Source of the DNA: an uncultured Actinomycetes bacterium
GTDB lineage: Bacteria > Actinomycetota > Thermoleophilia > UBA2241
Direction of reading: 5' to 3'
Assembly: GCA_963755025.1 (NCBI GenBank)
Contig: CAVWIH010000014.1
Span: forward strand, 352,001-416,000
Length of the DNA stretch: 64,000 bases
Shown one piece after another: positions 29,030-47,660 of the stretch. A program made the position numbers and the translations under genes. Numbering within the stretch: the first letter of the stretch is position 1; each line of letters starts with the position of its first letter. The notes beneath the pieces were generated by a model that did no database searches, was not told the origin of the DNA, and worked only from the letters and a program-made list of their open reading frames with translations.

Positions 29030-30541
29030 ATGGCAACAGACCCAGTCACTCAGACGAGCGACGAACAGATCCTGCAGACGTTCGGATACCGGCAGCAGCT
29101 CAGGCGCTCGCTCAAGCCCCTGGCCGTCCTGGGCATCTCGTTCTCGTTCATGTCGATCACCACCAGCGTCTACGTGAACTTCGGGTTCGGCCTCGGCAAG
29201 TTCGGCACCGCCAGCATCTGGTTCTGGCCGCTCGTGCTCCTTGGCCAGTTGTTCGTCGCCTTCGTGATCGCCGAACTGGGCTCGCGCATACCCTTGGCCG
29301 GCTACTCCTACCAATGGGGGTCGCGCCTGGTGAACGCGGGCTACGGCTGGTTCATCGGCATCTTCGTCTTCGTCTACCTGCTGACGTGCGTGGCGACGAT
29401 CAGCTACGTGCTCGTCGCCCCCTTCATCGGCGTCATCTTCGGCTGGTCGCTCAGCAACCTCGACCTGCTGCTGATCGCGATCGCCACCGTCGTCGTGCTC
29501 ACCCTCGTGAACCTCGTGGGCGTCAGGCTCTTCGCCCGGGTCAACAATGTGGCGGTCTTCTGCGAGATCGTCTCGACGCTGGTGATTGCCCTCATCGTGG
29601 CCATCGCCGCCCTCGCCAAGCCGGCCAGCCACACTGTCTCGCTGTTCAACACCAACGGCGTGCACGGCTCTGCCATCTGGGGCGCCGTCGTGGGCGCGAT
29701 GGTCATGGGCTTCTTCGCCCTCACCGGCTTCGAGGCGGCCGCCGACATGTCCGAGGAGAGCGTCGGCGCCCGCCGCGCCATTCCCCGCGCCGTCATCTGG
29801 TCACTGGTGGGCACCGGCCTGTTCGGCATGATCGCCCTCATCTGCTTCGCCTCCGCCGTACCCACCGGCCACATGGCCGCCGTCGCCGGCTCATACACGC
29901 CCGTCTACGACGTGGTCTCCTACTGGCTGGGCAGCACCGGAGCGCGCGTGGCCCTTGCGTTCCCGCTGGTGGCGGTGCTCGGCACCTGCCTGTCGGTGGT
30001 CGCCGTGATGGGCCGGCTGATCTTCGCCCTCTCGCGCGACAACGTCGTGCCGTTCTCAAAGCAGCTGCGCGGCGTCAACGGCAGGTCGCAGGTACCGACG
30101 GTCGCGCTCGTGGTCGGCTCACTGCTCGCCATCGCGATGCTCGTCTACGCCTACTACCAGGTCAGCACCTTCGACGTGCTGGTCGGCGCCACCTCGATCC
30201 TGCCGTTCGTCTACTACCTGCTGATCGTGGTCGCCTATGCATTCAAGCGTCGCGAGCTCGAGGCGTTCCACGTGCCCGGCATGTTCACCCTCGGCAAGTG
30301 GTCCAAGGTGGTCTTCGGCATCGCTTTCGTCTGGCTCATAGCGGCGCTGCTCATGCTCACGCTGCAGCCCATGTTCCACCAGGCCGACATCGCCGTGCTC
30401 GGCACGCTGGGCGTGGGGGTCGTGTGGTACGTAGCGGCGCTGCACTGGCGCATCAAGGCCGGCAAGGCCGGCGCGCCCGCGGGCAGCTCAGACGGCGCCG
30501 AAGAGCTCCCGGCGCCTGAGCCGACCGGGGTGGGCGTCTGA
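29030..30541 (+). CDS. APC-family amino acid/amine permease
   Basis: About 12 TM; FGYRQQLRRSL, AELGSRIPLAGYSYQW, GFEAAADMSEES, FALSRD. Confidence 0.9.
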   Translation: MATDPVTQTSDEQILQTFGYRQQLRRSLKPLAVLGISFSFMSITTSVYVNFGFGLGKFGTASIWFWPLVLLGQLFVAFVIAELGSRIPLAGYSYQWGSRLVNAGYGWFIGIFVFVYLLTCVATISYVLVAPFIGVIFGWSLSNLDLLLIAIATVVVLTLVNLVGVRLFARVNNVAVFCEIVSTLVIALIVAIAALAKPASHTVSLFNTNGVHGSAIWGAVVGAMVMGFFALTGFEAAADMSEESVGARRAIPRAVIWSLVGTGLFGMIALICFASAVPTGHMAAVAGSYTPVYDVVSYWLGSTGARVALAFPLVAVLGTCLSVVAVMGRLIFALSRDNVVPFSKQLRGVNGRSQVPTVALVVGSLLAIAMLVYAYYQVSTFDVLVGATSILPFVYYLLIVVAYAFKRRELEAFHVPGMFTLGKWSKVVFGIAFVWLIAALLMLTLQPMFHQADIAVLGTLGVGVVWYVAALHWRIKAGKAGAPAGSSDGAEELPAPEPTGVGV

Positions 30542-30629
30542 AACGGGGCGGGCGTCTGAAACGCGGTGCCCGTCTGAGGGGCGCCGCGTTCGTCGCCCTG
30601 GCCGTCGCGAACCACCTGCCGAAGATCGG

Positions 30630-31480
30630 ATGCATCACGTGACCTGGACCGTCGACATCATCGAGGTCGGCACGCTGCCCGACACGGCGCTGAGCGCCTA
30701 CGTGTACGGGGCGCTCGACGAGGTGCTCCTCGACGTACCCTGCTTCTGCTGGCTGCTGCGCGACGGGCAGCGGTCGTTGCTGGTCGACACGGGTCCTGAC
30801 CTCGAACAGTCCGTCGACGTCGGCTACGAGGTCGGGGGCGACCCGCGCGCGAGCCTGCTCGCCGCCCTCGAGCGCTGCGGAGTGTCCCCGGCCGGCATCG
30901 ACCAGATCGTCCACACGCACCTCCACCAGGACCACGTGCAGAACGACGCGCTCTTTCCGAACGCGCGGGTGCTCGTACAACGCGAGGAGCTGCGGTCGGC
31001 GCTCGCCACGGAAGCGTCCTGCGAGCTGCTGTCCGCCGCCGCCCGCGAGGCGCTCGCGGCGGGGCCCTACGCCGAGTCGCAGGCGGCCGGCGTGCTGGTA
31101 CCGGGGGATCGCGAGCTTCTGCGAGGCCCTCGGCGAGCGCCTGTGCCCGGTGGACGGCCGTCACGAGGTCGCTGCCCGGGATCACGCTGCTGCCGAACGG
31201 CGGCCACACGACCGGCCACCAGAGCGTCCTCGTCGACACCGACGAGGGCGCCGCCTGCCTGTGCGGCGACATCGTCTCGCTGTCGATCAACCGCGACGTC
31301 GTCGGCCCCATGACTCCCGACGACGACGCGACCCGCACCTTCCTGCGCCGGCTTCGCTCGGAGCGCTGGGAACCGATCCCCGCTCACGAACCGGCCATGC
31401 GCGGCCACCGCTGGTTCGTCGAGGGTGGCCGGTCCGCCGAGACCCGCTCCCGGGAGCGCGACACCGCTCACTCACGATAG
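30630..31480 (+). CDS. Metallo-beta-lactamase-fold hydrolase (AHL-lactonase-like); apparent frameshifts near 31100-31170
   Basis: LVDTG, HTHLHQDH; C-terminal frame GGHTTGHQS...CGD...PAHE ends at TAG 31478-31480. Confidence 0.75.
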
Positions 31481-31534
31481 AGTGGACCAACGCACAGTGT
31501 CGGGTCAGGAGCGACCGAGAATGGAGCTGAGCCT

Positions 31535-33001
31535 ATGAAGCGCAATCTGCAGGCGGGGGCGCGACGCAGCGCCTTGCGCCTTGAGGTCTTCACCGAAGCG
31601 GACCTCGACGACATCCACCGCGGGACACTCGAGATCCTCGAGCGCACCGGCGTGTTCGTCGAAAGCGACGAGGCCCTCGACGTGATGGCCGACGGCGGCT
31701 GCCGGGTCGATCGCGAGACCAAGATCGTCAAGATCCCGCCGTACATCGTCGAAGACGCCATCCGCTGGTCGCCGAGCACGGTGACGCTCTGCGGGCGCGT
31801 GCCCGAGAACGACGTGGTGCTCGAAGGCGGCCGCGTCGGCTTCACCAACTTCAGCGCCGGCATCATGGTCATCGACCCGCGCACCGACGAGTACCGCAAG
31901 TCGACCACGCAAGACGTCGCCGACCTCGCGCTCATCACCGACTACCTGAGCGAGATCGACACCTACGAGCACTCCGTCGAGGGCCGCGACGCGCCCGAAG
32001 AGACGCTGGCCGTGCGCGACACGGCGCTCGCCTTGAAGAACACGACCAAGTGCGTCGGCACCGGCGCGCTCTCCACCTACGACGTCGACGCCATCGTGGC
32101 CATGGGCGCCGCGGTGGCCGGCGGCGAAGACAAGCTGCGCGAACGGCCGCTCGTCTACTTCTGCGAGTGCCCGGTCAGCCCGCTCAAGATCACCCGCGAC
32201 GCCGCCGAGGTCATCATGGGCGCCGCCCGCCACGGCTTGCCCAACAACGTGATCTCCATGGCCATGGCCGGCGCGTCGTCGCCGGTCACCCTGGCCGGCA
32301 CGCTGGTCACCCACAACTGCGAGGTGCTCGCCAGCCTCACGCTGGCGCAGCTCACCGAGCGCGGCGCGCCGACCATCTACGGCTCGTCGACCACCGCCAT
32401 CGACCTGCGGCTCGCCGCGGCGTCGGTCGGCTCTCCCGAGCTCGGCCTGCTCAGCGCCAGCGTGGCGCAGCTCGCGCAACGTTACATGCTGCCCAGCTTC
32501 GTAGCCGGGTTATAGGCAGACTCCAAGCTCAGTGACATCCAGGCCGGTCACGAGAAGACCCTGACCGCCCTCATGGCAGCGTTGGCAGGCGCCAACCTGA
32601 TCTACGGGGCGGGGATGACCGAGTCGGGTGTCACCTTCGATTACGCGCAGTACGTGCTCGACAACGACATGGCGAGAATGATCAAGAAGACGGTGGCGGG
32701 CATCTCCGTCACCGACGAGAACCTCGACCTTGCCGACATCCACGCCGTGGGCTCGTTCGGCGACTACCTGTCGCTCGACTCCACGCTCAAGCACATGCGC
32801 GAGCTCAGTCAGCCGCGGTTCATGGACCGTCGCGTCCGCGAGGACTGGCAGGCCATGGGCGCCAAGGACGCCTACTCCGCCGCCAAGGAGGCGGCGAAGC
32901 AGATCCTTGACGAGCACAAGCCGCTGGCCCTGCCGGGCGAGGTGGCCGACAAGCTCGACGCCATCCTGCACGACGCCGAAGTCCACGGCGGGGTGGTCTG
33001 A
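31535..33001 (+). CDS. mttB: Trimethylamine:corrinoid methyltransferase, pyrrolysine-containing (mttB1; 488 aa, Pyl327)
   Basis: ORFs 31535-32515 and 32573-33001 are in the same frame, joined across TAG 32513-32515: [45 protein letters not shown], the canonical MttB Pyl context. Confidence 0.92.
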
Positions 33002-33013
33002 GGCCCAGCGTCT

Positions 33014-33058
33014 CAGGGGAGCGGCTTCGGGCTTGCCCGAAGCCGCTCCCCTGTTCTT
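33014..33058 (+). terminator. Intrinsic terminator after the full-length mttB1
   Basis: CAGGGGAGCGGCTTCGGGC-TT-GCCCGAAGCCGCTCCCCTG followed by TTCTT. Confidence 0.8.
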
Positions 33059-33144
33059 CATCGCGCTCGCCACGCGCCGTCGCCGCTCGAGAGGCGGCGC
33101 GGGCTCCCGCGAGCGACCCGCCCGCCGCGACCGGCCGGGCGGCG

Positions 33145-33588
33145 TCAGCTCTGGCTCAGCTTGTCGAGCGCCGACTGCAACGAGGCCTCGTAGGCCTGTG
33201 TCGTGTAGGTGGCTCCTGAGACCCCCTGGATGCTGGCGCTCTGCGCGCTCACCGTCTGCTGCTCCAGCTGCGGCACGGCGACCTGCTCGATCTGCGCCGA
33301 CCTGGGATCGTTCGTGTTGAGGGCGGCGGTCGTGGCCGCGGTGATCTTGCCGTTGGCGACGCTCACCCTGACCTGGATGTCTCCGTAGCGCCCACCGCCG
33401 ATGGCCTCGTCGGTGCCCGTGACCGTCTGCGAGCCGCTCGTGCTCCCCAGGCTCGCCGCCGCAGCTGGTGTGCTCGTGGCGCTCGGCGCCGTCGCCGACG
33501 AGGACGAACCCTCGGGCTTGGGGTGGTAGCCCAGGACGAGCGCCAGACCGGCTCCGGTCGCCACAAGCACGATGATCGCTCGGCGCAT
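33145..33588 (-). CDS. Secreted FMN-binding (flavinylation-motif) protein
   Basis: Signal/TM, YGDIQVRV, IQGVSGATYT ([S/T]GA[S/T] motif). Confidence 0.8.
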   Translation of the reverse strand: MRRAIIVLVATGAGLALVLGYHPKPEGSSSSATAPSATSTPAAAASLGSTSGSQTVTGTDEAIGGGRYGDIQVRVSVANGKITAATTAALNTNDPRSAQIEQVAVPQLEQQTVSAQSASIQGVSGATYTTQAYEASLQSALDKLSQS

Positions 33589-33978
33589 GTCGTGGTCTCC
33601 CTTCCCTGTCGTCGCCGGTGTGCGAGCCGGCGCTCGCGCGCGCCATAGGCACGCCGACCACCGGCGCTTGGCTTTGAGTCTGGCTCATCCTGCCCAGCAG
33701 GGGCTGAGCGTACGCTGAGAGAACACTGAGAATGACGAAGCGCGCCCAATGCGGACGCCTCATGACCGGCGTCGGCAACGGCGCTTTCCCCGTTCGCGGC
33801 GGCCTGCGCCCGTTACGGCGCCACCGCACAAACGACGCTTCTTGCTCAGCTTGTGGTTGTTAACTGCCGATACGGGCCATATAGGCGGTGGCTGGCCACG
33901 GCGTCGTCGTGGCGGCCATCTGTACTAGAGCGCGTACGTTCAGTTGTCGAGACTCGCTCATGAGACCGGGAGCACATC

Positions 33979-34179
33979 GTGGCCAAGGGAACAGTGAAGT
34001 GGTTCAACGCACAAAAAGGGTATGGCTTCATCGAGCAGGCTGACGGAGGCAAAGACGTCTTCGTGCACGTCAACTCACTCGCCGCCGGTGTCGGCACGCT
34101 GGCCGAAGGCCAGACGGTCGAATACCAGGTAGAGGAAGGCCAGAAAGGGCCCCAGGCGGCCGACGTCAGGCCTGCCTGA
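33979..34179 (+). CDS. cspA: Cold-shock protein
   Basis: [27 protein letters not shown]. Confidence 0.95.
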
Positions 34180-34650
34180 CCCAAGGTCTCGGTCTAGATC
34201 CCGACACCGCGCCCGGCCGGCCCTGCTTCAGGGCCCGGCCGGGTCTTCAGCCCCCACACAGCAAGAGGCACAGCGTGGCCGTGGGGCCGGCTGCTACCGG
34301 CCAGAGGCCCCGGCGGGCCGCGCCTTCTCTTCGGCTGGCTCGCTCCACTTCTTCGCGGCGAGCGCCGCGACGCTGCCGGCTACAAGGCTCTGCAGTTGTG
34401 GATACCCCATGACGGACCCCGACTTCGGCTTCTGCGATGCTTCCGCAGCGGACCCTCCGAGAGTGCCGCCGCCGTCATCGCCTTAGCGAGCCCCTTCGCC
34501 CGCTCATACTACTAGCTTACTGCTACCAAAGGCCCGCCGGGCCGTCTCTGGACACATGTTCTACACCCCGCGTCTACGCGACCTGGGTCGTCGGCGCCGT
34601 CAGGCCAGACCAGCCGAGGGCGGCGCCAACGATACGCGGGTCGTTCTGCT

Positions 34651-35412
34651 TCAGCCGTCTACGAGCTGCTGGCCACCGTCGACGTCGTAGGTGGCTCCCG
34701 TGAGCGCGGTGTTGGTCATCAGGTGGACGGCCAGAGCAGCCACGTCGGCGGGGCCGACGACGCGTCCGATGGGCAGCGTGGCGCGCAGCCGGCGGCGGCG
34801 CTCCTCGAGCTCATCGCCGAGGAGCGCCGCCGACAGGCCTGTGTCGACGAAGCCGGGAGCGATCAGATTGACGCGGATGGGGGCGACCTCGAGCGCCAGG
34901 TTGGCGACGAGGGCGGGCATCGCCGCGGTGACCGTCGAGACGATCGCCAATCCCAGGCCGGGACGGCGGGAGCCGGTGCCACCCATGAACACGAGCGAGC
35001 CCCCCGGCCGCACGCGGCCCATGGCGTTGCGGGCGACCTCGAAGGTCAGCATGAGGTGCTCGTCGAGCGCCCGGCGTGTCTGCTCGTAGTCCAGGTCGGC
35101 CAGGCGCCCGTACTTCGGCCGGCCGGCGGTGACCATCACGTGGTCGACCGGCTTGGGCAGCTCCTCAAAGAACCGCCGCAGCGCCGCCGCGTCGGTGGCG
35201 TCGAAGGCCGCGCTGCTGCGCGCCCCCAGTTCGCCCGCGGCCTGCTGCAGACGCCCGGGGTCACGGCCGGTCACAATGACGCCGGCGCCCTCGGCGCCGG
35301 CTCGCCGGCCCACCTCGAAGCCGATGCCGCCACTGCCGCCGATCACGACGACCGTCTGTCCCAGAAGTTCAGGTACGCGCTCGGGCTGCGGCGCGATGTT
35401 TGCTGTGGCCAT
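34651..35412 (-). CDS. Short-chain dehydrogenase/reductase
   Basis: VIGGSGGIG, PIRVNLIAPG, TGATYDVDGG. Confidence 0.85.
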   Translation of the reverse strand: MATANIAPQPERVPELLGQTVVVIGGSGGIGFEVGRRAGAEGAGVIVTGRDPGRLQQAAGELGARSSAAFDATDAAALRRFFEELPKPVDHVMVTAGRPKYGRLADLDYEQTRRALDEHLMLTFEVARNAMGRVRPGGSLVFMGGTGSRRPGLGLAIVSTVTAAMPALVANLALEVAPIRVNLIAPGFVDTGLSAALLGDELEERRRRLRATLPIGRVVGPADVAALAVHLMTNTALTGATYDVDGGQQLVDG

Positions 35413-35427
35413 GATCTCTCCTTATCG

Positions 35428-36798
35428 TCAGGCGGCCATCGGCGGTCTGACGTCGCTGGCTCCCGACGCCGCCGCGATCTGGCCGCGCAGCGCCTTGAGC
35501 GCATCGACGTAGATCTCCGAGAAGGTCGGGAACGGCTGGATCGTGTCGCGCAGCACGTCGAGCGAGACGCGGGCGCGGATCGCCAGCGTGGCCTGTTGCA
35601 GCCACTCGCCCGCCTCGGGGCCGAGCGCGTAGGCGCCCAGCAGACGTTCGCCGTCGCTCACCAGTGTCAGAAAGCCGTTCTGGTCGGCGGACGCCCTCGT
35701 GTAGGTGGGGGACTTCGCGATCTCAGACACGAGCGCCGTCGCGCTGAAACGCCCGCTCGAAGCGCCCACCGCCGCGGCTTGCGGGTCGGTGTAGACGACG
35801 CGCGGCACGGCCTCGTAGCCGGCCGTGCGCGGCTCGCCCAGGATGTTCGCGGCGACCACCTCGCCCTGGTATTTGCCGACGTGGGTCAGCGGCCAGATGC
35901 CGGTCACGTCGCCGATGGCCCACAGACGGTCGGCGACGCGCAGGTGCGCATCGACCGGTATCCCGTGGCCGTCGGGCTCGATGCCGACGGTCTCGAGGCC
36001 TATCCCGCGCACCCGCGCACGGCGGCCGGTGGCGGCGAGCAGCCGGTCGCCGCGCAGTTCGCGGCCGCCGTCGAGCTCGAGGACATAGTCCGCGCCGTCG
36101 CGCCGCGCGGCGGTCGCGATGGCGGACGGGACGAGCTCGATGCCCTCGCCGCGCAGGGCCTCGCCGAGCGCCTCGCCCAACGGCGCCGCTTCGCGCGAGA
36201 GCAGGTGTGCGGCCCTCTCGACGATCACCGCCTGGCCGCCGAGCCGACGCACGACCTGCGCCATCTCCACGCCGACCGGGCCGCCGCCCAGAACGAGCAG
36301 GCGGCGCGGGATCGCCTTCATCGAGGTCGCCTCGCGGCTCGTCCAGACACCCTCGAGCTCGCGCAGGCCCGGCACGGGCGGCACGACGGCGGCGGCGCCG
36401 TTGGCCAGCACCACGTGATCGGCCGTGTGCCGGACGCCGTCGACCTCGACGACGCCCGGGCCGGCGAGCCGCCCGTTGCCGCGCAGCAGGTCGATGCCGC
36501 GATCGGCCAGCCAGCGCTCCTGCCCCGCGTCGGACCAGTCAGAGACCATGTCGTCGCGCCAGGCAAGCGCCGCTTCGACGTCGACCTCGGCGTTCGCCGC
36601 CGCCTCGCGCGCACCGTGCACCGCCTCGCCGGGCCGCAGCAGCGTCTTCGAGGGGATGCAGGCCCAGTAGGAACACTCGCCGCCCACCAGCTCGCGCTCC
36701 ACGACGGCCACCCGCAGGCCGCCCTCGGCCAGGGCGCCGGCGCAGTGCTCGCCCGGCGCGCCGCCGCCGAGGACGATGACGTCGTAGTCGCTGCTCAT
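35428..36798 (-). CDS. Pyridine nucleotide-disulfide oxidoreductase (dihydrolipoamide dehydrogenase/mercuric reductase family)
   Basis: [33 protein letters not shown]. Confidence 0.85.
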
Positions 36799-36812
36799 CG
36801 CGGCAGCTCCTT

Positions 36813-37307
36813 TCAGCGGCCGGGAAGCCGCGTCGTGACCTCCTGGAACAGCCAGCCGTTGCCGTCGGGGTCGCTGAACGAGGCGAACGAGCCGTAGCTC
36901 GTGCGCTCGGGCGAGGGCCCGGCGACGCGGCCGGCGACGTGGAACCGGGCGCCGCGCGCGCCTTCGTGGAACACCTCGCTCACCTCGACGCCGCGCGCCG
37001 CCAGGTCGGCGCGCGCGGCCTCGACGTCGGGGACCGCCAGGTACAGGCTCTGGCTCGATCCCGGCGCGGCGGTGGTGAGGCTCTGACCGAACTGGATCGA
37101 ACAGCGAGAGCCAGGGGGCGTGTACTGGACGAGGCGAAAGTCGCCGTCGGCTACGTCGGCGTCGAGCCTCCAGCCGAGGCCCCCGTAGAACTCCTTGGCG
37201 CGATCGACGTCGGAGACCGCGATCACGACCACCTCGAGGTCCACCTCTCCGGCCTTCACCGGCGGAGTGCCCACGGCCCCGTCGCTGCTCCTGGGGACGG
37301 CGCTCAT
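36813..37307 (-). CDS. VOC/glyoxalase family protein
   Basis: [24 protein letters not shown]. Confidence 0.85.
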
Positions 37308-37666
37308 CTCGGGCCCCGTTCCCCTCCGACCCGGTCGCGCCAGTCCCTCGGTGGCCCCGGACTCCAGCCCGGCGGATGGCTGGGCGAGTCCTCGAACTCG
37401 GCCGGCTCCGCGGCGACGTCGTCGGCGTAGCAGTAGACCCAGTCCTCGGCGGGCTCGTAGGACTGGATCACGTGGTGCCCGGTCTCACGGGCATGCGCCG
37501 TCGCGTGGCGGTTGGGCGAGTCGTCGCAACAGCCGATATGACCGCACGTCAGGCAGCGGCGCAGGTGCATCCAGTGCCCGCCGCTCGCCAGGCACTCCAC
37601 GCATCCGGGTCCGCTGGGCTCGACGTCGGGAGACGCCTGAGCGATGTGGTCGCAGGTTTCATCCAT
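37304..37666 (-). CDS. UBP-type zinc-finger protein
   Basis: CVEC...[27 protein letters not shown]. Confidence 0.85.
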
Positions 37667-37821
37667 GGGAGCTACTCCGGGTCCGTCGTCTAGCCGTTCC
37701 AAGTGACATACCCGGCTCTGCCCGGCTCGCGCGATCTCGGCGTTTACGACGGCGGCGTACGCGCCTGACCGGTGGCCGCAGACCCACCGCGCGCGGTCGC
37801 ACGCCGGCCCGGACGCAGGCG

Positions 37822-37862
37822 AAACAAAGCCGCCTGCCCTCTCGAGCGCGGGCAGGCGGCTT
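37822..37862 (-). terminator. Terminator of the mttB2-corrinoid-APC operon
   Basis: 13-bp stem AAGCCGCCTGCCC / GGGCAGGCGGCTT followed by a T-rich tract on the minus strand. Confidence 0.65.
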
Positions 37863-37906
37863 CGGTCACACGGAGCTCTCGGTGGGCCTTCTTGCAGTGA
37901 GAAGCC

Positions 37907-39499
37907 TCAGGCCTCCTCGAGCACCGACGGCGCGGCCACGGCCGCCGGCAGCGCTGCCTCTGTCGCTCCCGAGGTCTCGCCGTCGAGCGCCAGCAGATCG
38001 CTGTCGCTCACGGCGCCGCTCGCGAGGTTGCGCCTGCCGATCAGCCAGAACACCGCGCCGGTGACGAAGAAGAAGCCGAGCGTGCCCAGCGTGACGGTCT
38101 CGAAGAAGACGCGAGAGACTCCCCAACTGGTCTCGATGTCGTAGCTCATCCCCAGCGCGCGATCGAGCAGCCCGGGCCAGAGCAGCGTGATCGCCGTGAG
38201 CACGATGATCGCCTCGGAGAGGATCACGCAGACCCACAGGCCGACGGTGCCGCCCGGCACCCGGAACGGGCGGCGCCGGTCGGGATACTTGCGCCGCAGC
38301 GGGATCACCGAGGGGAGCATGAAGAAGTACATGAGCGCCGTCAGCGAGATGACGAGCGTGACCATGACCGTGAAGAAGCTCTGCAGGCTGCCGCTCGTGA
38401 GCAAGAAGACCAGGGCGACGAAGATCGAGCCGATGACCGCCGAGACCACGTTCATCACGACCGGCGTGCCGGTGCGCCTGGAGAACGTGCCGAGCCACAG
38501 CGGCCCGGCGCCGTCGAGGCCGGCCACCGCCTGCACGCGCACGGCGCCCTGCAGCCAGACGCCGCCGGCGCTGATCACGGTGAGCACGACGAGCGCGCCG
38601 ATGAGGTAGTTGAGCCCCGTGTGCAGGCCACCGTGCAGCACGCCGGCGACCGCGAAGTAGGTGTCGGCGAAGCCGGTCGCGTTCGTGAGCTTACTGGCGG
38701 GGATGACGAGCAGCACACCCAGGATCAGCGAGCCCGTGACGAAGCAGGCCACCAGGCCGGAGCGCAGGATCATGACCGGCACGTCGCGCTGGGCGTTCTT
38801 CATCTCTTCGGCGGCGCCGTTGGAGAGCTCGAACCCTACGAAGAGGAACTGCAGCAGCCCGATCACCGCCAGAAAGCCGGTGACGCTGGGCTTGACCGAC
38901 GACAGGGTCACGGTGCCGGCCGGTTTGCCGTGGCTGATGAGGAAGGCGACGACGAGCACCAGGAAGATGGCCAGCATGAGCAGGCGCACGATCGTGCCGA
39001 GGATGCCGGTCCACTTGCCCCACTTGAGCTCGACGAGCGAGAGGCCCACGATCGCCCACACCACGGCGATGCCCACGACGATCGAAGGCAGCGTGCCCAT
39101 CGGGTTCTTCAGATAGAAGGTGTTGATCGCGGCGACGACCGCCGCCGCCAGCGTGCCGCCCATCCACACCGGGTTGCTCATCCAGTAGAAGACCGAGGTG
39201 AGCGCGCCCGGCAGGCGGCCAAAGGCCATGCGCGGCCACACGTAAGGCCCTCCCTCCACGGGGAAGGTCGAGCCCAGCTCCGCGACGATCATGCCGTAGG
39301 GCACGAGCCACACGAGGAGAATGACGATCAGCCAGAAGAAGGTCTGCCCGAGGCCGTAGGCCGCGGTCACCGCGATCGTGTCGAGGCTGATGAAGGCGGC
39401 GATGGTGAAGAAGACGATGTCGAAGCGCGTCAGGACCTTGCGCATCTTGGCGCGCTCCTGGCCCATCGCACCGGCCGTGGGGTCAGGCAGGGCGCTCAT
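37907..39499 (-). CDS. APC-family permease (candidate methylamine permease)
   Basis: AELGSTFPVEGGPYVW, GFELSNGAAEEMKN, RPFRVPGG; ATGA overlap with the corrinoid gene. Confidence 0.88.
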   Translation of the reverse strand: MSALPDPTAGAMGQERAKMRKVLTRFDIVFFTIAAFISLDTIAVTAAYGLGQTFFWLIVILLVWLVPYGMIVAELGSTFPVEGGPYVWPRMAFGRLPGALTSVFYWMSNPVWMGGTLAAAVVAAINTFYLKNPMGTLPSIVVGIAVVWAIVGLSLVELKWGKWTGILGTIVRLLMLAIFLVLVVAFLISHGKPAGTVTLSSVKPSVTGFLAVIGLLQFLFVGFELSNGAAEEMKNAQRDVPVMILRSGLVACFVTGSLILGVLLVIPASKLTNATGFADTYFAVAGVLHGGLHTGLNYLIGALVVLTVISAGGVWLQGAVRVQAVAGLDGAGPLWLGTFSRRTGTPVVMNVVSAVIGSIFVALVFLLTSGSLQSFFTVMVTLVISLTALMYFFMLPSVIPLRRKYPDRRRPFRVPGGTVGLWVCVILSEAIIVLTAITLLWPGLLDRALGMSYDIETSWGVSRVFFETVTLGTLGFFFVTGAVFWLIGRRNLASGAVSDSDLLALDGETSGATEAALPAAVAAPSVLEEA

Positions 39500-40137
39500 G
39501 TCGTCGACGCAGCAGCGACCAGGGCCTTGGCGCGGTCGACCGCCATGCCGGCGTTGGCGCCGTAGCCGTCGGCGCCCAGCGACTCGGCGAAGGCCTTTGT
39601 GACCGGCGCGCCGCCGACCAGCACCTTGACCTGCTCGCGCAGGCCGGCGTCCTGCAGCGCGGCGATCGTCTCGGCCATGCGCGGCAAGGTGGTGGTGAGC
39701 AGCGCGCTCATGCCGAGGATGGTCGCGTCGTGCTCCTTGACGGCCGCCACGAACTGCTGCGAGGTGACGCCGGTGCCCAGGTTGACGACCGTGAAGCCGG
39801 CGCCCTGCAGCAGCATGCCGACCAGGTTCTTGCCGATGTCGTGCAGGTCGCCTTCGACCGTGCCGATCACCACGGTGCCCAGGCCCCCGCTATCGCCGGC
39901 CCCGAGGTGCGGCTTCAAGATGTCGAGCGCGCCCTGCATGGTGCGCGCGCTGAGCAGCACTTCGGGAATGAAGCAGTCGCCCGAGCGCATGCGCTCGCCG
40001 ACCACGTCCATGCCGGGCAGCAGCGCGTCGTCCAGGATCTCGCGAGCCGGGGCGCCGCTCGCCAGCAGCGCCTGGGTGAGGGCGTTGACCGTGTCGGCGT
40101 TGCCGGCGATCAGCGCCTGCGTGAGTTGCTCTTTCAT
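39496..40137 (-). CDS. Methyltransferase cognate corrinoid protein (MttC/MtbC family)
   Basis: Cap domain FIPEVLLSARTM; B12-binding GDLHDIGKNLV...SALLTTT...VGGAP. Confidence 0.92.
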   Translation of the reverse strand: MKEQLTQALIAGNADTVNALTQALLASGAPAREILDDALLPGMDVVGERMRSGDCFIPEVLLSARTMQGALDILKPHLGAGDSGGLGTVVIGTVEGDLHDIGKNLVGMLLQGAGFTVVNLGTGVTSQQFVAAVKEHDATILGMSALLTTTLPRMAETIAALQDAGLREQVKVLVGGAPVTKAFAESLGADGYGANAGMAVDRAKALVAAASTT

Positions 40138-40209
40138 CTGTCCCCCTTGGGCAGCCGGCTCGAGCGGGCGAGCCGGCTGCAGTGTCCTTGCAGTCCGCCG
40201 GCGATGCGC

Positions 40210-41683
40210 TCAGGCGACGCCGACCAGCCGGTCCGTCTGCTCGACGATGGCGTGCATGCGCGCGGCGATGTCGTCGGGGATGGGCTCGGGCCGATACTCG
40301 CGCACGACGTCGCGCGCCTTTTCGAGGCAGCGTGGTGTAGAGCTCCTTGGAGCCGCGCGCGTCCCACTCCTCGCGCACGCGGCGATCGAGGAACTGCGGC
40401 TGGCTGAGCTCGCGCATGTGGAGCAGCGTGGCGTCGAGCGAAAGGAAGTCCCCGAACGGACCGACCTGCACGATGTCCTCCACCGCCAGCGTCTCGTCGT
40501 TGACCCGCACTCCACCGACCACGCGCTTGATCATGCGCGCGAACTCGTTGTCCATGACGAACTGTCCGCAATCGAAGGTGACTCCCGACTCGATCATCCC
40601 CGCACCGTAGATCAGGTTGGCCCCTGCCAACGCTGCCATGATTCCGGTGAGGGTCTTCTCGTGCCCGACCTGGGCGTCACCGAGCTTGGCATCCGTCTAT
40701 AACCCGGCGACGAAGCTCGGCAGCAGGTAGCGCCGCGCCATCTGGGTCACCGCCGCGCTGATCATGGCGAGCTCGGGCGAGCCCACGCAGGCAGCCGCGA
40801 GCTTCAGGTCCATGGCCGTCGTGGACGACCCGTACATCACCGGGCAGCCACGCTCGGTGAGCTGCGCCAGCGTGATGCCCGAGAGCACCTCGGCGTTGTG
40901 GGTGACCAGGGTGCCGGCCAGGGTGACCGGCGAGGAGCCGCCCGCCATGGCCATGCTCAGGATGTTGTTGGGGATCCACCAGCGCGACGTCTCGATGATC
41001 ACCTGGGTGGCGTCGCGCGGCAGCTTGAGGGGGCTCACCGGGCAGACGCCGCCGTAGAGGATGGGGCGGCGGCGCAGCTCGTCGGCGCCGCCGACGACCT
41101 CGGCCGCCATCTCGAAGATCGCCCTCGCCTCGATCCGCGACAGCGGTCCTATGCCGATCGGCTTGGTCGTGTTCAGGAGCTGCGCCTCGGTGTGGTGGAC
41201 GGCGGCGGTCTCGGGCGGCACGTCGCTCGCTCCCACGGCGGTCTCGTGGGTGTCGATCTCGCTCAAGTAGTCGTTGAGACGGGCGATGTCGGCGATGTCC
41301 TTCTTGGTCGAGTTACGATACTCGCCGGTCTCGACGTCGATGACCCTGATGCCTTCGCTGAAGTTGGTGAAGGCCACGCGACCCGGCTCCATGACGAAGT
41401 CGTTCTTGGGGTTGTTGCGGCCGTACAGCACGTACCGGCTGGGCGCGGAGCGGATGGCGTCGTCGACCACATGCGGCGGAAAGCGCACGATATGCGTGTC
41501 GCGGTCGACCATGCAGCCGCCGTCGGAGTAGATGTCGAGCGCCTCGTCGTCTTCGACGAAGACACCGGCACGCTCGAGGACTTCGAGACTGGCGAAGTGG
41601 ATCTCCTCGAGCTCGGATTCGGTGAACACGTTGACGCTGAGGCCGCCGCTGCGCGGCCGGCCGGCGAAGAGGTTGCGTTTCAC
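40210..41683 (-). CDS. mttB: Trimethylamine:corrinoid methyltransferase, pyrrolysine-containing (mttB2; about 490 aa, Pyl329); apparent 1-nt frameshift near 40330
   Basis: LPSFVAGL-TAG(40699-40697)-TDAKLGDAQVGHEKTLTGIMAALAGANLIYGAGM in frame. The terminal segment CLEKARDVVREYRPEPIPDD...* (40210) is in a shifted frame and aligns with the mttB1 C-terminus. Confidence 0.88.
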
Positions 41684-41720
41684 ACTGCACCACCCCCTGG
41701 AACACGTCGTAGGGATTTAC

Positions 41721-41768
41721 TTAGTTACATAACTAACGGTACAGTATCAGATGGTCGAAGGCTGTCAA
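41721..41768 (-). promoter_or_regulatory. mttB2 promoter with palindromic operator
   Basis: TTGACA (41768-41763), 16 nt, TACTGT (41746-41741) with TGn extension; TTAGTTA-CA-TAACTAA at 41721-41736. Confidence 0.75.
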
Positions 41769-41871
41769 GACCTCACGGTCACGCCGCGAGTGGCGCGCCC
41801 GGAGGCCGATGGATATCCTCTGGGTAGTCACCGTACGGGGCTCCTCGGGGGCCGACGAAGGGAAGCCGAGC

Positions 41872-42507
41872 TTGACGAGGTACGAGATACCGATCGAGGA
41901 CCCGGCGCCGCATCTGGCGCCGACCGCGGCGCGCATCCTCGACGCCGCCAAACGCGTGCTGGCCCGCGACGGTTTTCGCGCGCTCACCTTCGTCAACATC
42001 GCCGACGAGGCCGCCGAGAACCCGGCCCTCATCCGTTATCACTTCGGCAACAAGGCCGGCCTCATCGCGACGCTCGTCGACTCGGTCCTCTACCTCGAGA
42101 GCCTCGACTTGATCGAGAAGCTCACCAGCGTGCCGCCCGGCGACGAGCGCCGCCGCGCCCTGTTCGCGCTCCACCAGACCTACACCAAAGACCTCGAGGG
42201 CTACCAGCTGTTCTACGAGCTCGTGCCGCACATCTTGCGCGACCCCGAGCTACGGCCACACCTGAGCGCCCTGTTCGACTGGTATCGCAAGCTCGACGCC
42301 TGGGCCCTGGGCGCGCAGCCCGGCACCGAGCACCCGGCGCAGCTCGAACCGCTGGCACTGCTCAGCGTCGCGCTCGCCGACGGCGTCGCTCTGCAGGTCC
42401 AGGTCGACCCCGACCTCGACGTCGGCCCCGCCTTCGAGATCTGGCGCGGGCTGATCCTGAGCTATCTCGACGGCGCCGCCGGCGGCGGCGCACCGCCGCA
42501 ACCCTAA
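41872..42507 (+). CDS. TetR/AcrR family regulator, divergent from mttB2 (start uncertain, 41809 or 41872)
   Basis: RILDAAKRVLARDGFRALTFVNIADEAAENPALIRYHFGNKAGL HTH. Confidence 0.88.
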   Translation: MTRYEIPIEDPAPHLAPTAARILDAAKRVLARDGFRALTFVNIADEAAENPALIRYHFGNKAGLIATLVDSVLYLESLDLIEKLTSVPPGDERRRALFALHQTYTKDLEGYQLFYELVPHILRDPELRPHLSALFDWYRKLDAWALGAQPGTEHPAQLEPLALLSVALADGVALQVQVDPDLDVGPAFEIWRGLILSYLDGAAGGGAPPQP

Positions 42508-43991
42508 CGCAGCTCCTGGTCGGCGGCGGCGACGATGCGCCGCAGCTCCCGTACCTTGTCGTCGGCAAGCGGCGTGGGCACGTAGTGCTCGAGAATATCG
42601 AGCCCGCGCTCGCGAGCGACCTCGACGGGGTTGCGGTAGTGGACGCCGTCGGGGCCGATCTCCTGTCCGATCGAGCGCTCGACGGTCTCTTTCATGTGCC
42701 GCCGGGTATGCGGCTGACCCAAAAAGTGCCCGCCCGGCCCCACCGCGTCGATCACGTCGAGGGCCAGCGTCTCCTCGTCTAACTCGACGTCCTTGAAGGC
42801 GTTGGCGGCGCGGTGGTAGAGGTCGTCGTCGAGCATCATGTGCTCGGGGGTGAACAGCTGATAGCGATTGGTGAGGCCGATCGTGGTCATGAGCTCCGAG
42901 CCGACGAGGCTCGCCACCATCAGCGTGTGCGCCGTCTCGGCGGCGGCCAGCCAGGTGCCCGGCAGGTCGTCGTCTGTGCCAGCGTACCCGCTCATCGCCG
43001 GCAGGCCGAAGTGGTGCACCAGCTCGGTCGGCAGGAAGAGGCCGCGATGGTTGAGCGGCGCCGTCGTCAGCGCGGCCGTGCGCGGATCGGCGTGCACCGG
43101 CAACGGAAAGAGGATCACCGGCGCGCCCGGGTGGGCGAGCTGGATGAGCACGGTGGCGCTGATGAGCTCGGCGAAGCCCATGACGTAGGCGCCGGCCTTG
43201 GTCGCCGGCGCCGTGGTGCCGAAGGTCGGCATGGTCACGAAGCACACCGGAATGCCGGCCTCGGCAAAGACGAGGGCCGCTTCGATCCCGTCCTTGTCGT
43301 TGACCAGCGGCTGCACGGTGCCGATCAGGTCGCTCATCGGCGGCCGGCGCCGCAGCTCCTGCGGGCCGCCGGCGACGACCGTCGCCATCTCCACGGCGTA
43401 GCGCGCCTCGCGCTCGCCCTGGACCATACCCTGGAGGTGCTTGCCGGTGTTGTTCCAGGCCGCCTCCAGCTCGTGCAGCGTGTGCGTGTCGCCGCAGTCG
43501 GCGGCGGCCACGTTCGGCCACCAGAACTGCAGCGAACCGAGGTAGTCGATCATGCGGGTGATGGCTTCGAGGTCTGTCTTGGTCGGCTGGCGGCGCACGC
43601 CGTCGTGCCAGTCGATGACCTCGGTGCCGCAGCCGTTGGTGGTGTTGAAGGTGTCGCCGCCGGCGAGGTCGAGGTCGCGCTCGCCGTCGCGCGAGCCCAG
43701 CCAGAAGTCGCGCGGCGCGCTCGCCAGGGCGCGCGTCACCAGGTCGGGCGAGAGGCGCGCGATCCCCGTGGCGCGGTCGACGCGCGCGCCGTGCTCCTCG
43801 AGGATGGCGAGCGTCTTGGGCGAGGCGAAGCGCACGCCGGTGCGCTCCAGCACCTGCAGCACCGCGTCTTTGTAGCGGTCGAGTCGCGCGCGGTCGTAAA
43901 AGGTCGCCTTGAAGTCGGAGCGCAGCGGCAGGAGTGGTTGCGGCCGGCTGAGGTCGAGGTGGGAACGGCCGAGGTCGAGTTGGCTAGTCAT
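42504..43991 (-). CDS. Non-pyrrolysine MttB-superfamily methyltransferase (mttB3, 495 aa)
   Basis: VLERTGVRF, TTAPATKAG, GLPAMSGYAGTD (no amber at the Pyl-equivalent site), VGPGGHFLGQPHTRRH; ATGA overlap with the mtbB stop. Confidence 0.85.
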   Translation of the reverse strand: MTSQLDLGRSHLDLSRPQPLLPLRSDFKATFYDRARLDRYKDAVLQVLERTGVRFASPKTLAILEEHGARVDRATGIARLSPDLVTRALASAPRDFWLGSRDGERDLDLAGGDTFNTTNGCGTEVIDWHDGVRRQPTKTDLEAITRMIDYLGSLQFWWPNVAAADCGDTHTLHELEAAWNNTGKHLQGMVQGEREARYAVEMATVVAGGPQELRRRPPMSDLIGTVQPLVNDKDGIEAALVFAEAGIPVCFVTMPTFGTTAPATKAGAYVMGFAELISATVLIQLAHPGAPVILFPLPVHADPRTAALTTAPLNHRGLFLPTELVHHFGLPAMSGYAGTDDDLPGTWLAAAETAHTLMVASLVGSELMTTIGLTNRYQLFTPEHMMLDDDLYHRAANAFKDVELDEETLALDVIDAVGPGGHFLGQPHTRRHMKETVERSIGQEIGPDGVHYRNPVEVARERGLDILEHYVPTPLADDKVRELRRIVAAADQELR

Positions 43992-45388
43992 GACGTCACT
44001 CCCGTCAGGGTCGTGTGGCGCTTGAAACACTCCACCGAGTTCACCGGCACGTCGAGCGTCTCTGCGATATGGAACTTGGCCGCGATGGCGCCGGGCTGGT
44101 CGGGGTAGGTCAGGTCCTGCACCGGGATGCGGCCAAGTCCGAAGTCGCGGCGCAGGTCGTGCATGGCGATCGTGTCGCTCAAGTCGAGCACCGAGCAGCC
44201 GAGCTTCTCGGCGACGTAGCGCTTGGCCTGCGGGAGACGCATGCCTCGGGTGATCTGCATGCGGGCTACCAGGTCTCCGGCGGTCCGCATTCCGCCCATA
44301 CCCGAGGCGAGCGCGTGAGTGGAGGCTATCCCCAAAGGATCCCCCACGCCTACCTACAAGCCGTCGAGCTTGAGGATGTCGACCAGCGCGCGTGAGGCGC
44401 GCGACGTGGCGTCGACCGGAGGGTAGGGGCTCATCGGCACGCCGCCCACACCCATGCCGGCGTTCATGTGGACGGGGATGGTCGCCTCGGCGGTCACCGG
44501 CTTCACGAGCGCGCAAGCGCGCGCCGTGTTCCAGGCCAGCGACTTGGTGGTGTTCACGTTGACCGCCGGACCGAAGATCGTGGCGCCGGCCGCCGTGACG
44601 GCGCGCAGCTGGTCGAGCGGCCACATGCCGGCGAGGCGGCGGCCCTCGTACTCGAGCTCGCCGTGCATGCCGAGCACGAGCTCGCCGGCCTGGCCGACCT
44701 CGACCCCGATGTCGGGCCAGCGATCGCGGACCTGCCTGACGACCCGCAGCGTAGCCAGCAGGTCGGCGTCGCCGGCCGCGCCGGCCGTGTCGAAATCGAG
44801 GCCGTCGGCGCCGGCCGCGATCATGGTCTCGGCGACGATCAGCATGTCGTGCTCAAGGAGGCCGACGGCCTCTTCCTGGGCGCGGCGCGCTTCTTCGATC
44901 TTGCCCAGGGGCAGCAGCTGCGACCAGTTGTCGGCGGGGCCGTCGGGCTTCGAATAGCGGCCGAGGTCGGGCATGGCGCCGTAGTTCAGAGGGACCACCG
45001 TCTGCAGTTGGGCGTCCTTCATCATCTGCGCCTGAAACGAGAGCACGGTGCGCACGGCCTTGTAGGAGTAGTCGAGGTGCCAGAGCTCGAGCGAGTCGGC
45101 GCCGTGGTGGTTCTGGTAGACGAGCTGCTCGGTGACCGGATGCCCCAGGTCGCCGTTGCCGGCACCGTCGAAGCTGAGCACGACCTCGTCGCCGTAGTCG
45201 ACCGCGGTGAACTTCGATGGCGAGGTGAAGATGTCCAACAGGTGCGCGAGCTCGTCGGCGGCGAGCGGCTCCACCTTGGCGCGCCGCACCGCGGCCGCGA
45301 CTCCGGCCTCGAGGTCGGCCTCGATCTCGGCCGGCGTCATCTCGGCAAGGGAGCCGTCTCCGAGGCGTGTGGGTATGCGATGCGCCAT
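43988..45388 (-). CDS. mtbB: Dimethylamine:corrinoid methyltransferase, pyrrolysine-containing (466 aa, Pyl345)
   Basis: TRLGDGS, DYSYKAV, YGAMPDLG, DFDTAGAAGDAD; then LKLDGL-TAG(44356-44354)-VGVGDPLG...SGMGGMRTAGDLVARMQ...AKRYVAEKLG, the canonical MtbB Pyl context. Confidence 0.92.
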
Positions 45389-45418
45389 CGTCCCCCAGTT
45401 TCGTTCGCGGATTCTTAC

Positions 45419-45476
45419 TTAGTTACCTAACTAACTCCTGGCGCGCACGATACCGGGGACCCGGCGGGCGTGTCAA
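45419..45476 (-). promoter_or_regulatory. mtbB promoter with the same palindromic operator
   Basis: TTGACA (45476-45471), 18 nt, TATCGT (45452-45447); TTAGTTA-CC-TAACTAA at 45419-45434. Confidence 0.75.
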
Positions 45477-45564
45477 GGCTGCGGCGAGCGGGGCGGCGGG
45501 CGGGGGTCGGCGACACGTGCGCCGACGCTCGGATCGATCGGAGCGCGAGCCTGCGCGGGCGCCT

Positions 45565-46689
45565 CTACACGCGCGCCAGGCCGGCTCCCTCGACGAGGGA
45601 GCGCAGCTTGGCCCACGCCACGGTCGGGGTGACCTGAGGCCGGCCGACGAACGTACCGAAACCGCAGTCCGTACCCGCCACCACGCGCTCCGCCCCGACC
45701 ACCGAGGCGAACCGCTCGAGGCGCTGGGCGACCAGTTCGGGGTGCTCGACGAAGTTCGAAGTCGAGTCGATCACGCCGGGTATCAGGTACTTGCCCTCGG
45801 GCAGCGGCCGCCCGGCGAACACGGTCCACTCGTGACCGTGACGAGGGTTGCTGGCCTCGATCGACAGGCCGAGCGGCGTTGCGTCGAGCACGACGTCGAT
45901 GATGTCGGCCAGGGGGACGTCGTGCGTGTGGGGGCCTTCGTAGTTGCCCCAGCACAGATGCAGGCGCATGCGTTCGGGGGAGATGCCGCGCGTCGCGTGG
46001 TTGAGCGCCTCGACGTTGAGCGCGATGTCGCGGCGGAACTCCTCGAGACTGAGGCCGGCGAAGACCGTGTGTCTGCCGGCCGCCAGGTCGGGACAATCGA
46101 GCTGCAGCGTCACGCCGGCATCGACGATCGCTTCGTACTCCGGCCTCATCGCCTCGGCGAGCGCGCCGAGGTACTGCTCGCGATCGCCGTAAAAGCGGTC
46201 CTCGAAGAAGAGCGCGATCACGCCGGGCGAGGCGGCCGTCATGAACAGCTGGCCCATGTCTGCGCCGGCCGCGCTCGCCGCGGCGCGCAGGTTCTCGAGG
46301 TCGCGCCCCACGGCCTCGTCGTCGCGCCGCCGCACCGGCCCAGTGCAGGCCGGCGTGCGCACCTGCAACCCGCTCAAGACGAGGCCCATGCGCTCGGCGT
46401 CGTCGGGAAAGTCGGCAAGCTCGGCCAACGGCGAGAGGCCGCCGGGCTCTCCTGCGAAGCCGGTCAGGCGGTCCTTGATGTACGTCGAGTAGCCGACCTT
46501 GCTCTGTTCGCCGTCGTTTACGATGTCGAGCCCGATCTCGGCCTGAAGGCGCACGGCCTCGGCGACCGCGGCCGTCACTCGCTGCTCGAGTCCGGCGGGC
46601 GTCCCACCTTCGTCGCGCTCGACGACCATCGCCGCGAGGTCGGCCGGCCGGGGCAGGCTGCCGGTATGTGTCGTGAGAATGCTTGCCAC
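45565..46689 (-). CDS. Cobalamin-independent methionine synthase II-like protein (MetE catalytic-domain / epoxyalkane:CoM transferase family)
   Basis: TTHTGSLPRP, VNDGEQSK, HLCWGNYEGPH, SIEASNPRH, GTDCGFGT (Zn ligands). Confidence 0.88.
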   Translation of the reverse strand: MASILTTHTGSLPRPADLAAMVVERDEGGTPAGLEQRVTAAVAEAVRLQAEIGLDIVNDGEQSKVGYSTYIKDRLTGFAGEPGGLSPLAELADFPDDAERMGLVLSGLQVRTPACTGPVRRRDDEAVGRDLENLRAAASAAGADMGQLFMTAASPGVIALFFEDRFYGDREQYLGALAEAMRPEYEAIVDAGVTLQLDCPDLAAGRHTVFAGLSLEEFRRDIALNVEALNHATRGISPERMRLHLCWGNYEGPHTHDVPLADIIDVVLDATPLGLSIEASNPRHGHEWTVFAGRPLPEGKYLIPGVIDSTSNFVEHPELVAQRLERFASVVGAERVVAGTDCGFGTFVGRPQVTPTVAWAKLRSLVEGAGLARV

Positions 46690-47464: not shown

Positions 47465-47549
47465 AGCGTGTTCCTTCCACCCAATGCTGGCATGCGCCGT
47501 CTCTTCGTTTCGCCGCCCGGGCGTTCCTTCAACCCGTTTGCCCCGCACG

Positions 47550-47660
47550 GCGGCGAGGCCGCGCCGCGGAGCGGGCGGGCACGCCGGCACGACGGCGCGG
47601 CCGCGCCGCGGAGCGAGCGGTCGCGCCGGCGCGACGGCGAGGGCGCGCCGCAGAGCGGGT
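47550..47660. repeat. Degenerate GC-rich tandem repeat of about 42 bp
   Basis: CGGCG(A/C)GG(C/G)CGCGCCGC(G/A)GAGCG x3. Confidence 0.5.

Follow-up and report, generated by a model that had tools for sequence, protein, structure and literature searches.

Does an actinobacterial genome read the amber codon TAG as pyrrolysine (Pyl) in its methylamine methyltransferase genes, and which amines would the enzymes demethylate? This question is raised by a 64,000-nucleotide stretch of DNA (hereafter the window; positions 352,001 to 416,000 of contig CAVWIH010000014.1, assembly GCA_963755025.1), in which two mttB genes and one mtbB gene each carry a single in-frame TAG. An initial annotation, made from the letters alone, had placed these codons at the Pyl site of the two families. 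The genes were scored with TAG taken as a residue, and all three exceeded the curated NCBIfam cut-offs (TIGR02369, 525; TIGR02368, 369.1):

31535-33001, + strand: mttB1, Pyl-type MttB; one TAG at codon 327 (32513-32515); TIGR02369, 670.6 bits
41683-40210, - strand: mttB2, Pyl-type MttB; one TAG at codon 329 (40699-40697); TIGR02369, 650.9 bits; RF02510
45388-43988, - strand: mtbB, dimethylamine-methyltransferase family, first gene of operon A; one TAG at codon 345 (44356-44354); TIGR02368, 422.3 bits; PF09505

The TAG of mttB1 lined up with Pyl334 (X) of Methanosarcina barkeri MttB in an alignment with PDB entry 7XCL. Matches to Rfam PYLIS_3 (twice) and PYLIS_2 began exactly at the three TAGs, position 1 of these models being the family UAG, and the TAG of mtbB was position 1 of the RF02509 match. 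Several model pairs were broken in these matches, which were used solely to place the ambers and probably reflect coding conservation. The Pyl site of MtbB is presumably the residue numbered O356. Cut-off scores, the 7XCL alignment (mttB1) and PYLIS placement thus confirm two mttB genes and one mtbB gene with an in-frame TAG at the family's Pyl site.

The two mttB genes are 63% identical, and mtbB orthologues are 74-93% identical with TAG at the same codon. One extra base is present near 40330 in mttB2 compared with all 13 relatives' loci with printed alignments (14 rows, one genome appearing twice), so that the last ~40 residues are out of frame as assembled. We provisionally read this base as an error private to the assembly, since the assembly is rich in such indels. 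Databases store these proteins as 327-residue fragments, and the metabolism is therefore easily miscounted.

The genes proposed as a check in the initial annotation (pylT, pylSn/pylSc and pylBCD) were all found in the genome, pylC with a frameshift. The order pylB (67631)-pylC-pylD-pylT-pylSn was found on contig C10, which is not the window contig, with pylSc 4 kb further. ARAGORN called a tRNA-Pyl with a CUA anticodon at C10:71096-71168. It folds as a cloverleaf with a CUCUAAA loop, a short variable loop, no T-psi-C and an encoded CCA, features that count among the hallmarks of tRNA-Pyl. PylSn scored 125.8 bits (cut-off 51.15), PylSc 277.6 (178.15), PylB 423 (348) and PylD 173 (150). PylC was split by the frameshift into 64 and 246 bits in two frames (cut-off 248), which together covered model positions 2-370, and it was matched from the first residue onward at 93% identity in a relative's locus (L049). 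The GC content was 70.6-70.7% on both the window contig and the pyl contig. The presence of all six pyl genes, together with their joint loss with the target genes in two genomes (see below), strongly supports the proposal of the initial annotation that UAG is decoded as Pyl. Most of the relatives' pyl loci contain, between pylSn and pylSc (here C10:72256-73979), one gene for a radical SAM protein and one for a corrinoid protein, and a relaxed ARAGORN call of 'tRNA-Pyl' was obtained at C14:123765. A tRNA for selenocysteine (Sec) and a TGA-bearing formate dehydrogenase are also encoded.

Distribution of the trait and the status of TAG

The genome sets included a class sample of 401 genomes and a family set of 89 (88 relatives and this genome). 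In the class sample pylSc was present in 83 genomes. It was found in 73/79 genomes of the family and in all ten of the same genus, in 9/61 genomes of a second family of the class, and in none of 260 genomes from ten other families. A phylum sample contained it in 2/401 genomes including this one, both in this class. In a tree, the PylSc of this genome fell in a clade of 100/99 support with a bog_752 record, and neighbours were 69-84% identical. The genus Bog-752 is classified as Thermoleophilia; UBA2241 in the supplement of PMC10805028. Judging by this clade and classification, the genome is taken to belong to the Thermoleophilia, probably to family UBA2241. The pyl locus was syntenic with housekeeping neighbours in 11 records titled Actinomycetota, and pylSc lay about 12 kb from cysS in several genera. 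This shared arrangement suggests that the Pyl trait was inherited from the ancestor of the family.

The target genes are also widespread, with mtbB in 85/88 relatives and Pyl-type mttB in 84/88. The medians per family genome were 8 mtbB and 5 Pyl-type mttB matches, which are not copy numbers, as fragments inflate them and the limit of at most 16 and 15 scored candidates deflates them. All of the best 150 of 638 mtbB matches in the 89 genomes had exactly one TAG, and among the 150 listed of 455 Pyl-type mttB matches 148 had one TAG and 2 had two. With TAG in every listed family copy, the ambers of the window are not due to chance. This genome itself holds 5 amber mttB and 7 amber mtbB genes, each set including one that is frameshifted as well, together with about 22 mttB genes of the non-Pyl type. 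MtmB-family genes were found in 70/88 relatives and were full-length with TAG in 11 (13 with two fragmented copies); no MtmB match was obtained in this genome. In two genomes that are 98% complete in 1-2 contigs (G002 and G014), pylSc, mtbB and Pyl-type mttB were jointly absent. Four less contiguous or less complete genomes (G110, G286, G306 and G326) had the targets without pylSc, probably because of assembly gaps.

TAG terminated 918 of 2834 predicted genes (32%, with our own crude codon-model gene caller) and 93 of the 256 genes in the top tenth by codon bias. Because the full pyl machinery is encoded while TAG stays a common stop, UAG is ambiguous and not reassigned, so that Pyl would be incorporated at the three ambers by a fraction of the ribosomes. 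Scans for read-through, based on codon scores and a Markov model, recovered 4 of the 12 known ambers and gave 52 TAG junctions, mostly between adjacent in-frame genes. A scan of the genome also gave seven internal TAGs in six non-methyltransferase genes (C10:88436, C30:6207 and 5988, C29:40504, C31:20669, C10:1692 and C14:206947), several of them at tyrosine (TAC) positions. From their translations, the genes were named as cysS, a dimethyl sulfoxide-reductase-family enzyme with two TAGs, an aldo-keto reductase, a carbamate kinase, a C45 peptidase and ACR3. Two of the six, cysS and the molybdoenzyme, were checked in the 89 genomes. The relatives carried TAC, TGG or other sense codons, and for cysS no TAG occurred in any of the 81 relatives with a match. 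The TAGs in these two genes are private to the assembly; they are likely errors, and possibly tolerated nonsense changes. Of four sequencing runs compared with the stretch from pyl to cysS, those of soil and peat DNA contained contig pieces that were 97-100% alike, among which the cysS site is not listed; one of these runs may be the source sample. The RNA run gave only pieces about 90% alike on this stretch, and no evidence of expression.

The readings that would make the signal an artefact have together only a small residual chance. One holds that the ambers are dead stops, in pseudogenes or from errors of an indel-rich assembly, as the many frameshifts and the private TAGs in housekeeping genes such as cysS might suggest. 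The chance of this is virtually nil, since every listed family copy has TAG at this codon, the sequence downstream is conserved, and the pyl genes are present and were lost together with their targets; the family-wide conservation and the pyl genes effectively refute it. Binning contamination, by which the pyl genes or the window contig would come from a Firmicute or a member of the Desulfobacterota, could appeal to the 5% contamination listed for the genome and to the separate contigs of the two loci. However, the contigs agree in GC content, the pyl locus keeps its synteny among the Actinomycetota-titled records, every same-genus genome has pylSc, and the window's methyltransferase module occurs in same-genus genomes at 85-93% identity. 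The possibility is negligible, being refuted by the family-wide distribution. A genome-wide reassignment of TAG (bacterial 'code 34'), with Pyl in many proteins, would account for the seven TAGs in six other genes, including cysS and the two in one molybdoenzyme. This is a very remote prospect in view of the number of genes that end in TAG, also among those of highest codon bias, and of the sense codons in all relatives examined for the two tested genes, although rare extra Pyl proteins could escape scans that recovered a third of the known ambers.

Operons, operator and conserved module

The other features of the region are as follows:

45419-45434: palindromic operator of operon A, immediately downstream of TTGACA-18-TATCGT (45476-45447); conserved in relatives
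43991-42504, - strand: non-Pyl MttB-superfamily methyltransferase (PF06253), operon A; overlaps the mtbB stop
41809-42507, + strand: TetR-family regulator (PF00440), divergent from mttB2
41721-41736: palindromic operator of operon B, immediately downstream of TTGACA (41768-41763)-16-TACTGT (41746-41741)
40137-39496, - strand: corrinoid protein (B12-binding cap and core, DxHxxG motif; PF02607 and PF02310), operon B
39499-37907, - strand: permease of the APC family, closing operon B; best NCBIfam matches are amino acid/amine antiporters, all below cut-off
29030-31480, + strand: separate unit of an APC permease (29030-30541) and a metallo-beta-lactamase-fold gene (about 30639-31480, frameshifted here)
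45565-46689: metE-like gene; none in 19/19 relatives' loci

The non-Pyl MttB, the corrinoid protein, the TetR and the two APC permeases of the initial annotation are thus all present by Pfam or NCBIfam matches. The best NCBIfam match of the corrinoid protein was MtgC-like (219, below cut-off), and protein-atlas searches with the permease and the non-Pyl MttB returned generic names only.

The operator TTAGTTAnnTAACTAA occurs at 41721-41736 and 45419-45434, and these two copies are the only exact ones in the 3.37 Mb genome (0.00 copies expected from 100 shuffles). Two promoters with the same operator at their start sites drive mtbB with the non-Pyl mttB, and mttB2 with the corrinoid gene and the permease; tetR lies between them. 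The TetR is the presumed repressor of both operons and would bind the operator. A genome search at ≤3 mismatches gave no operator at the pyl locus or at other methyltransferase clusters. The shared operator of the initial annotation therefore stands for the mtbB and mttB2 operons, which are the only ones it fronts; mttB1 has no copy ahead of it.

Nor is the region one system, as had been assumed. mttB1 stands alone with a terminator downstream (33014-33053). The first permease and the metallo-beta-lactamase-fold gene travel together, intact, in 4/88 relatives, and mttB1 was adjacent in none of the four. Both the first permease and mttB1 lie outside the conserved methyltransferase module. A second palindrome, upstream of the first permease, was unique in the genome and unconserved in the relatives whose upstream region was shown.

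To delimit this module, 19 of the 37 TetR loci were compared, a TetR orthologue being present in 37/88 family genomes. Pyl-mttB, Pyl-mtbB and a non-Pyl mttB flanked the TetR orthologue in 18 of the 19 loci, the 19th being a 52% paralogue. The operator was found beside a TTGAC promoter in 16/18 orthologous loci at ≤2 mismatches and in 18/18 at ≤3. These comparisons indicate that the conserved unit consists of mtbB(Pyl), the non-Pyl mttB, tetR and mttB(Pyl) with the operator. The same trio of methyltransferases occurs three times in the genome, on C14 and C16 (TetR) and on C34 (Lrp/AsnC). Every occurrence has a regulator to itself, and the non-Pyl MttB differs among the three.

Several further clusters were observed. 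On C36:1507-17338 and C21:1084-6032, amber mtbB/mttB and non-Pyl mttB genes lie beside choline/ethanolamine kinases and APC permeases. Two trios of corrinoid proteins have near-identical N-termini (C10:73338, C16:26009 and C36:3784; C26:2103, C28:94197 and C11:110026), reflecting either recent duplication or gene conversion. A gene of the formaldehyde-activating enzyme (Fae) family at C28:87671-88174 has a corrinoid protein gene and two mttB genes of the non-Pyl type in its vicinity. Within the window, a 293-aa open reading frame at 46709-47590 (- strand) without Pfam or NCBIfam match contains the cysteine-peptidase-like stretch GDCTCAAAGH. Upstream of the methyltransferase region are an ammonium transporter gene split by a frameshift (26801-28208, - strand) and the gene of a putative EamA/DMT-type membrane transporter (24496-25533, - strand).

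Active sites, substrates and proposed pathway

According to PMC9842639, Gly110 and Tyr364 are 100% conserved in 66 Pyl trimethylamine (TMA) methyltransferases, and Gly110 acts via its main chain. All five Pyl-MttBs of this genome retain the catalytic Tyr364 as well as Met249, with NLIYGAG and SMAM in mttB1 and mttB2. The Gly110 position is Ser in mttB1, in mttB2 and in 17/18 orthologues, Gly in the copies on C16 and C34, and Asp in the copy on C21. It is Gly in 30/30 best-scoring family copies. Among 21 amber-length representatives from the best 150 matches in a library of 1.84 billion proteins, Gly occurs in 16, Asp in 2, and Ala, Leu and Ser in one each. The position thus varies outside the published set, and the window holds a non-Gly clade. 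Lacking Gly110, mttB1 and mttB2 were filed as Pyl-type MttB and not as TMA methyltransferases. The change to Ser need not alter the substrate, because Gly110 works through the main chain.

The non-Pyl MttB of the window belongs to the same superfamily as MtgB of Desulfitobacterium hafniense (2QNE/9YCE; E 9e-48), which is described in PMC13080624. The betaine-binding residues Y97, R312, H348 and F356 of MtgB align to C, M, T and Y (hand numbering, with a two-residue offset), so that the first three are not kept and F356 is replaced by Y. By these active-site residues, the window's protein is not a glycine betaine enzyme. Motif scans, a weak test in a frameshift-rich assembly, gave no CutC-type glycyl-radical and no betaine/glycine reductase proteins. 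Full-length MttB relatives near the Pyl clade (P0001, P0005, P0006, P0007 and P0022; 40-46% identity) carry Trp at the Pyl position, and they are possibly a Pyl-free sister group.

We propose, with a probability of about 60%, that the window's genes encode a repressor-controlled, three-step N-demethylation line that would feed methyl-tetrahydrofolate (methyl-THF). The TetR would repress both operons until an N-methylated amine is present, and the permease would import this amine. The non-Pyl MttB would demethylate the quaternary amine, the Pyl-MttB then the tertiary and the Pyl-MtbB the secondary one; in the last two steps the amine would add to the imine of Pyl, as it does in Methanosarcina. 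The methyl groups would each pass to a Co(I) corrinoid protein, reactivated by two RACo/AcsV-type activases, and then to THF via an AcsE-like methyltransferase. Oxidation would run through MetVF-Hdr-Mvh, FolD, Fhs and the Sec formate dehydrogenase, with the electrons going to [FeFe]-hydrogenases (H2) or to respiration; relatives with acetyl-CoA synthase (ACS) could make acetate. The chemistry has precedents in PMC9842639 and PMC13080624: a tertiary or secondary amine added to Pyl becomes the methyl donor for Co(I), quaternary amines are the substrates of non-Pyl MttBs, and Co(II) is rescued by activases of the RACo type. That methylated amines are demethylated through a corrinoid, as the initial annotation had it, follows from the enzyme families themselves.

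In the genome we found the AcsE-like gene (C19:109710; 303 bits, cut-off 259), two RACo activases, Fhs and a split MetF. FolD, Hdr/Mvh, the Sec formate dehydrogenase and the hydrogenases were identified from translations and motifs, and a putative heme-copper oxidase (C14:130031) and cytochrome bd (C14:215633) were likewise recognised by motifs. At C37:19832-42873 there are two gene clusters for multi-subunit [FeFe]-hydrogenases, accompanied by maturase-like and sensor genes. The cluster acsD-acsC-acsV-cooC at C8:2260-7446 has no acsA or acsB adjacent, while acsB was found in 60/88 genomes of the family and 6/11 of the genus and is missing from some of the most complete ones. The ramA, mtmB and Wood-Ljungdahl/THF genes to be looked for according to the initial annotation were found in part: RACo activases, Fhs, MetF, acsC, acsD and AcsV-like and AcsE-like proteins are present, and mtmB, acsB and carbon monoxide dehydrogenase (CODH) were not found.

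Several points weigh against the proposed line. The sole candidate for a corrinoid:THF methyltransferase lies on another contig, and an MtrH-type enzyme was not found in the genome. CODH and ACS (acsB) were not found either, and at 84% completeness this leaves the methyl sink uncertain. Only 8/18 loci have the corrinoid gene next to the module and only 7/18 a permease orthologue (at least 60% identity), although some of these loci end at contig ends, so both parts are replaceable. mttB2 and pylC are frameshifted in the assembly. Furthermore, co-regulation would not by itself give the non-Pyl MttB a substrate in common with the Pyl enzymes.

Whether the substrates are TMA and dimethylamine (DMA) or larger N-methylamines stands at about even odds. 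A tentative suggestion, somewhat less likely than not, is that the expanded Pyl-MttB and Pyl-MtbB paralogues are substrate-specific and not redundant TMA/DMA enzymes. They would demethylate larger amines completely (R-NMe3+ to R-NMe2 to R-NHMe to R-NH2), and one such compound would be served by the trio of the window, in which the MttB has Ser110. If the substrates are indeed larger amines, the rarity of Pyl-MtmB would be explained by an end product, R-NH2, without N-methyl. Alternatively, MttB1, MttB2 and MtbB could be plain TMA and DMA methyltransferases ending at monomethylamine, with the non-Pyl MttB merely co-regulated and acting on an unrelated quaternary amine. Both families exceed their equivalog cut-offs, and the Pyl site is kept along with Tyr364 and Met249 of MttB. 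Mono-, di- and trimethylamine are the substrates of the three Pyl enzymes characterised so far (PMC13080624), and Ser may be tolerated where Gly110 acts via the main chain. The Olavius delta1 symbiont likewise has many mtbB genes and no Pyl-MtmB (6 MtbB, 2 MttB, 0 MtmB). This alternative is nevertheless the less likely one. The retention of Ser110 in nearly all orthologues of the module contrasts with the Gly of the best-scoring family copies and of most representatives. Six other mtbB copies are retained at about 47-60% identity (one fragmented), more than one substrate needs, and three of the five full-length mtbB rows of this genome with tree relatives fall in starred clades with copies of other genomes or of each other. 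Other copies adjoin the choline/ethanolamine kinases.

Known systems and implications

The closest characterised enzymes are MttB (7XCL/7XCM/7XCN) and MtbB of Methanosarcina barkeri, which are alike in family scores above cut-off, amber site, Tyr364, Met249 and a corrinoid partner and permease nearby. The present system differs in the Ser in place of Gly110, the bacterial split PylSn/PylSc and the lack of an MtmB match. It also differs in a sink that would be of THF and not coenzyme M type, and in a non-Pyl MttB partner under a TetR operator. In one archaeal locus (L062, Ca. Hecatella orcuttiae), the pyl cassette was adjoined by an amber mttB with Gly110 kept and by mtbB.

Within the phylum, wetland Actinobacteriota metagenome-assembled genomes express Pyl mttB and mtbB, and the genus Bog-752 is named (Ellenbogen et al. 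2023, PMC10805028), which is the same trait in the same phylum and in the probable lineage of this genome. In the passages concerned, that account is one sentence based on the amber truncation of mttB and covers neither a pyl cassette nor copy numbers, operons, operators or active sites, and 'pylS' does not occur in the supplements searched, two of which were incomplete. A pyrrolysyl-tRNA synthetase (PylRS) survey lists two Actinobacteria with PylSn and PylSc (Guo et al. 2022, PMC9630628). The surprise at the phylum implied by the initial annotation was therefore overstated. Its interpretation is partly supported: the evidence for UAG as Pyl is strong and corrinoid demethylation follows from the enzyme families, TMA and DMA are only possible substrates of these copies, and the single-system view of the region does not hold.

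Multiple copies also have precedents. The Olavius delta1 symbiont (PMC1976440), marine Deltaproteobacteria (PMC8318568) and 'Ca. Formimonas warabiya' DCMF (PMC9768040) have several Pyl mtbB/mttB genes, many non-Pyl mttB genes, and Pyl together with Sec. Their numbers are 8 copies in delta1, up to 5 mttB in the marine Deltaproteobacteria and seven MttBs expressed in DCMF, whose authors leave their role open; here there are 12 amber copies, and the medians for the family are 8 and 5 matches. The literature searched, from which most subscription papers and the supplements of bioRxiv preprints are missing, yielded no description of the operator, of the Ser110 clade or of the spread through the family, and a fuller account may have been published. 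What is added here is the family-wide extent in many diverged copies, the conserved module with its operator, and Ser110; the bare trait was already known for the phylum. Some of the diverged copies may act on amines other than the textbook ones.

The scale is considerable, as the 83 pylSc genomes of a single class sample, nearly all in one family, compare with 81 bacterial genomes in total in the 2022 survey. Many high-GC PylRS/tRNA pairs become available, and this genome offers a natural test of bacterial life with 32% TAG stops alongside a dozen Pyl genes. For the question of whether bacterial Pyl methyltransferases reach beyond simple methylamines, a defined set of genes is provided by the conserved trio and by the clade with Ser in place of Gly110. 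If the larger-amine reading is true, Pyl would activate substituted tertiary and secondary amines, and methanogens in peat and soil would have in this family a large competitor, so far overlooked, for plant and microbial amines of the betaine and alkaloid types.

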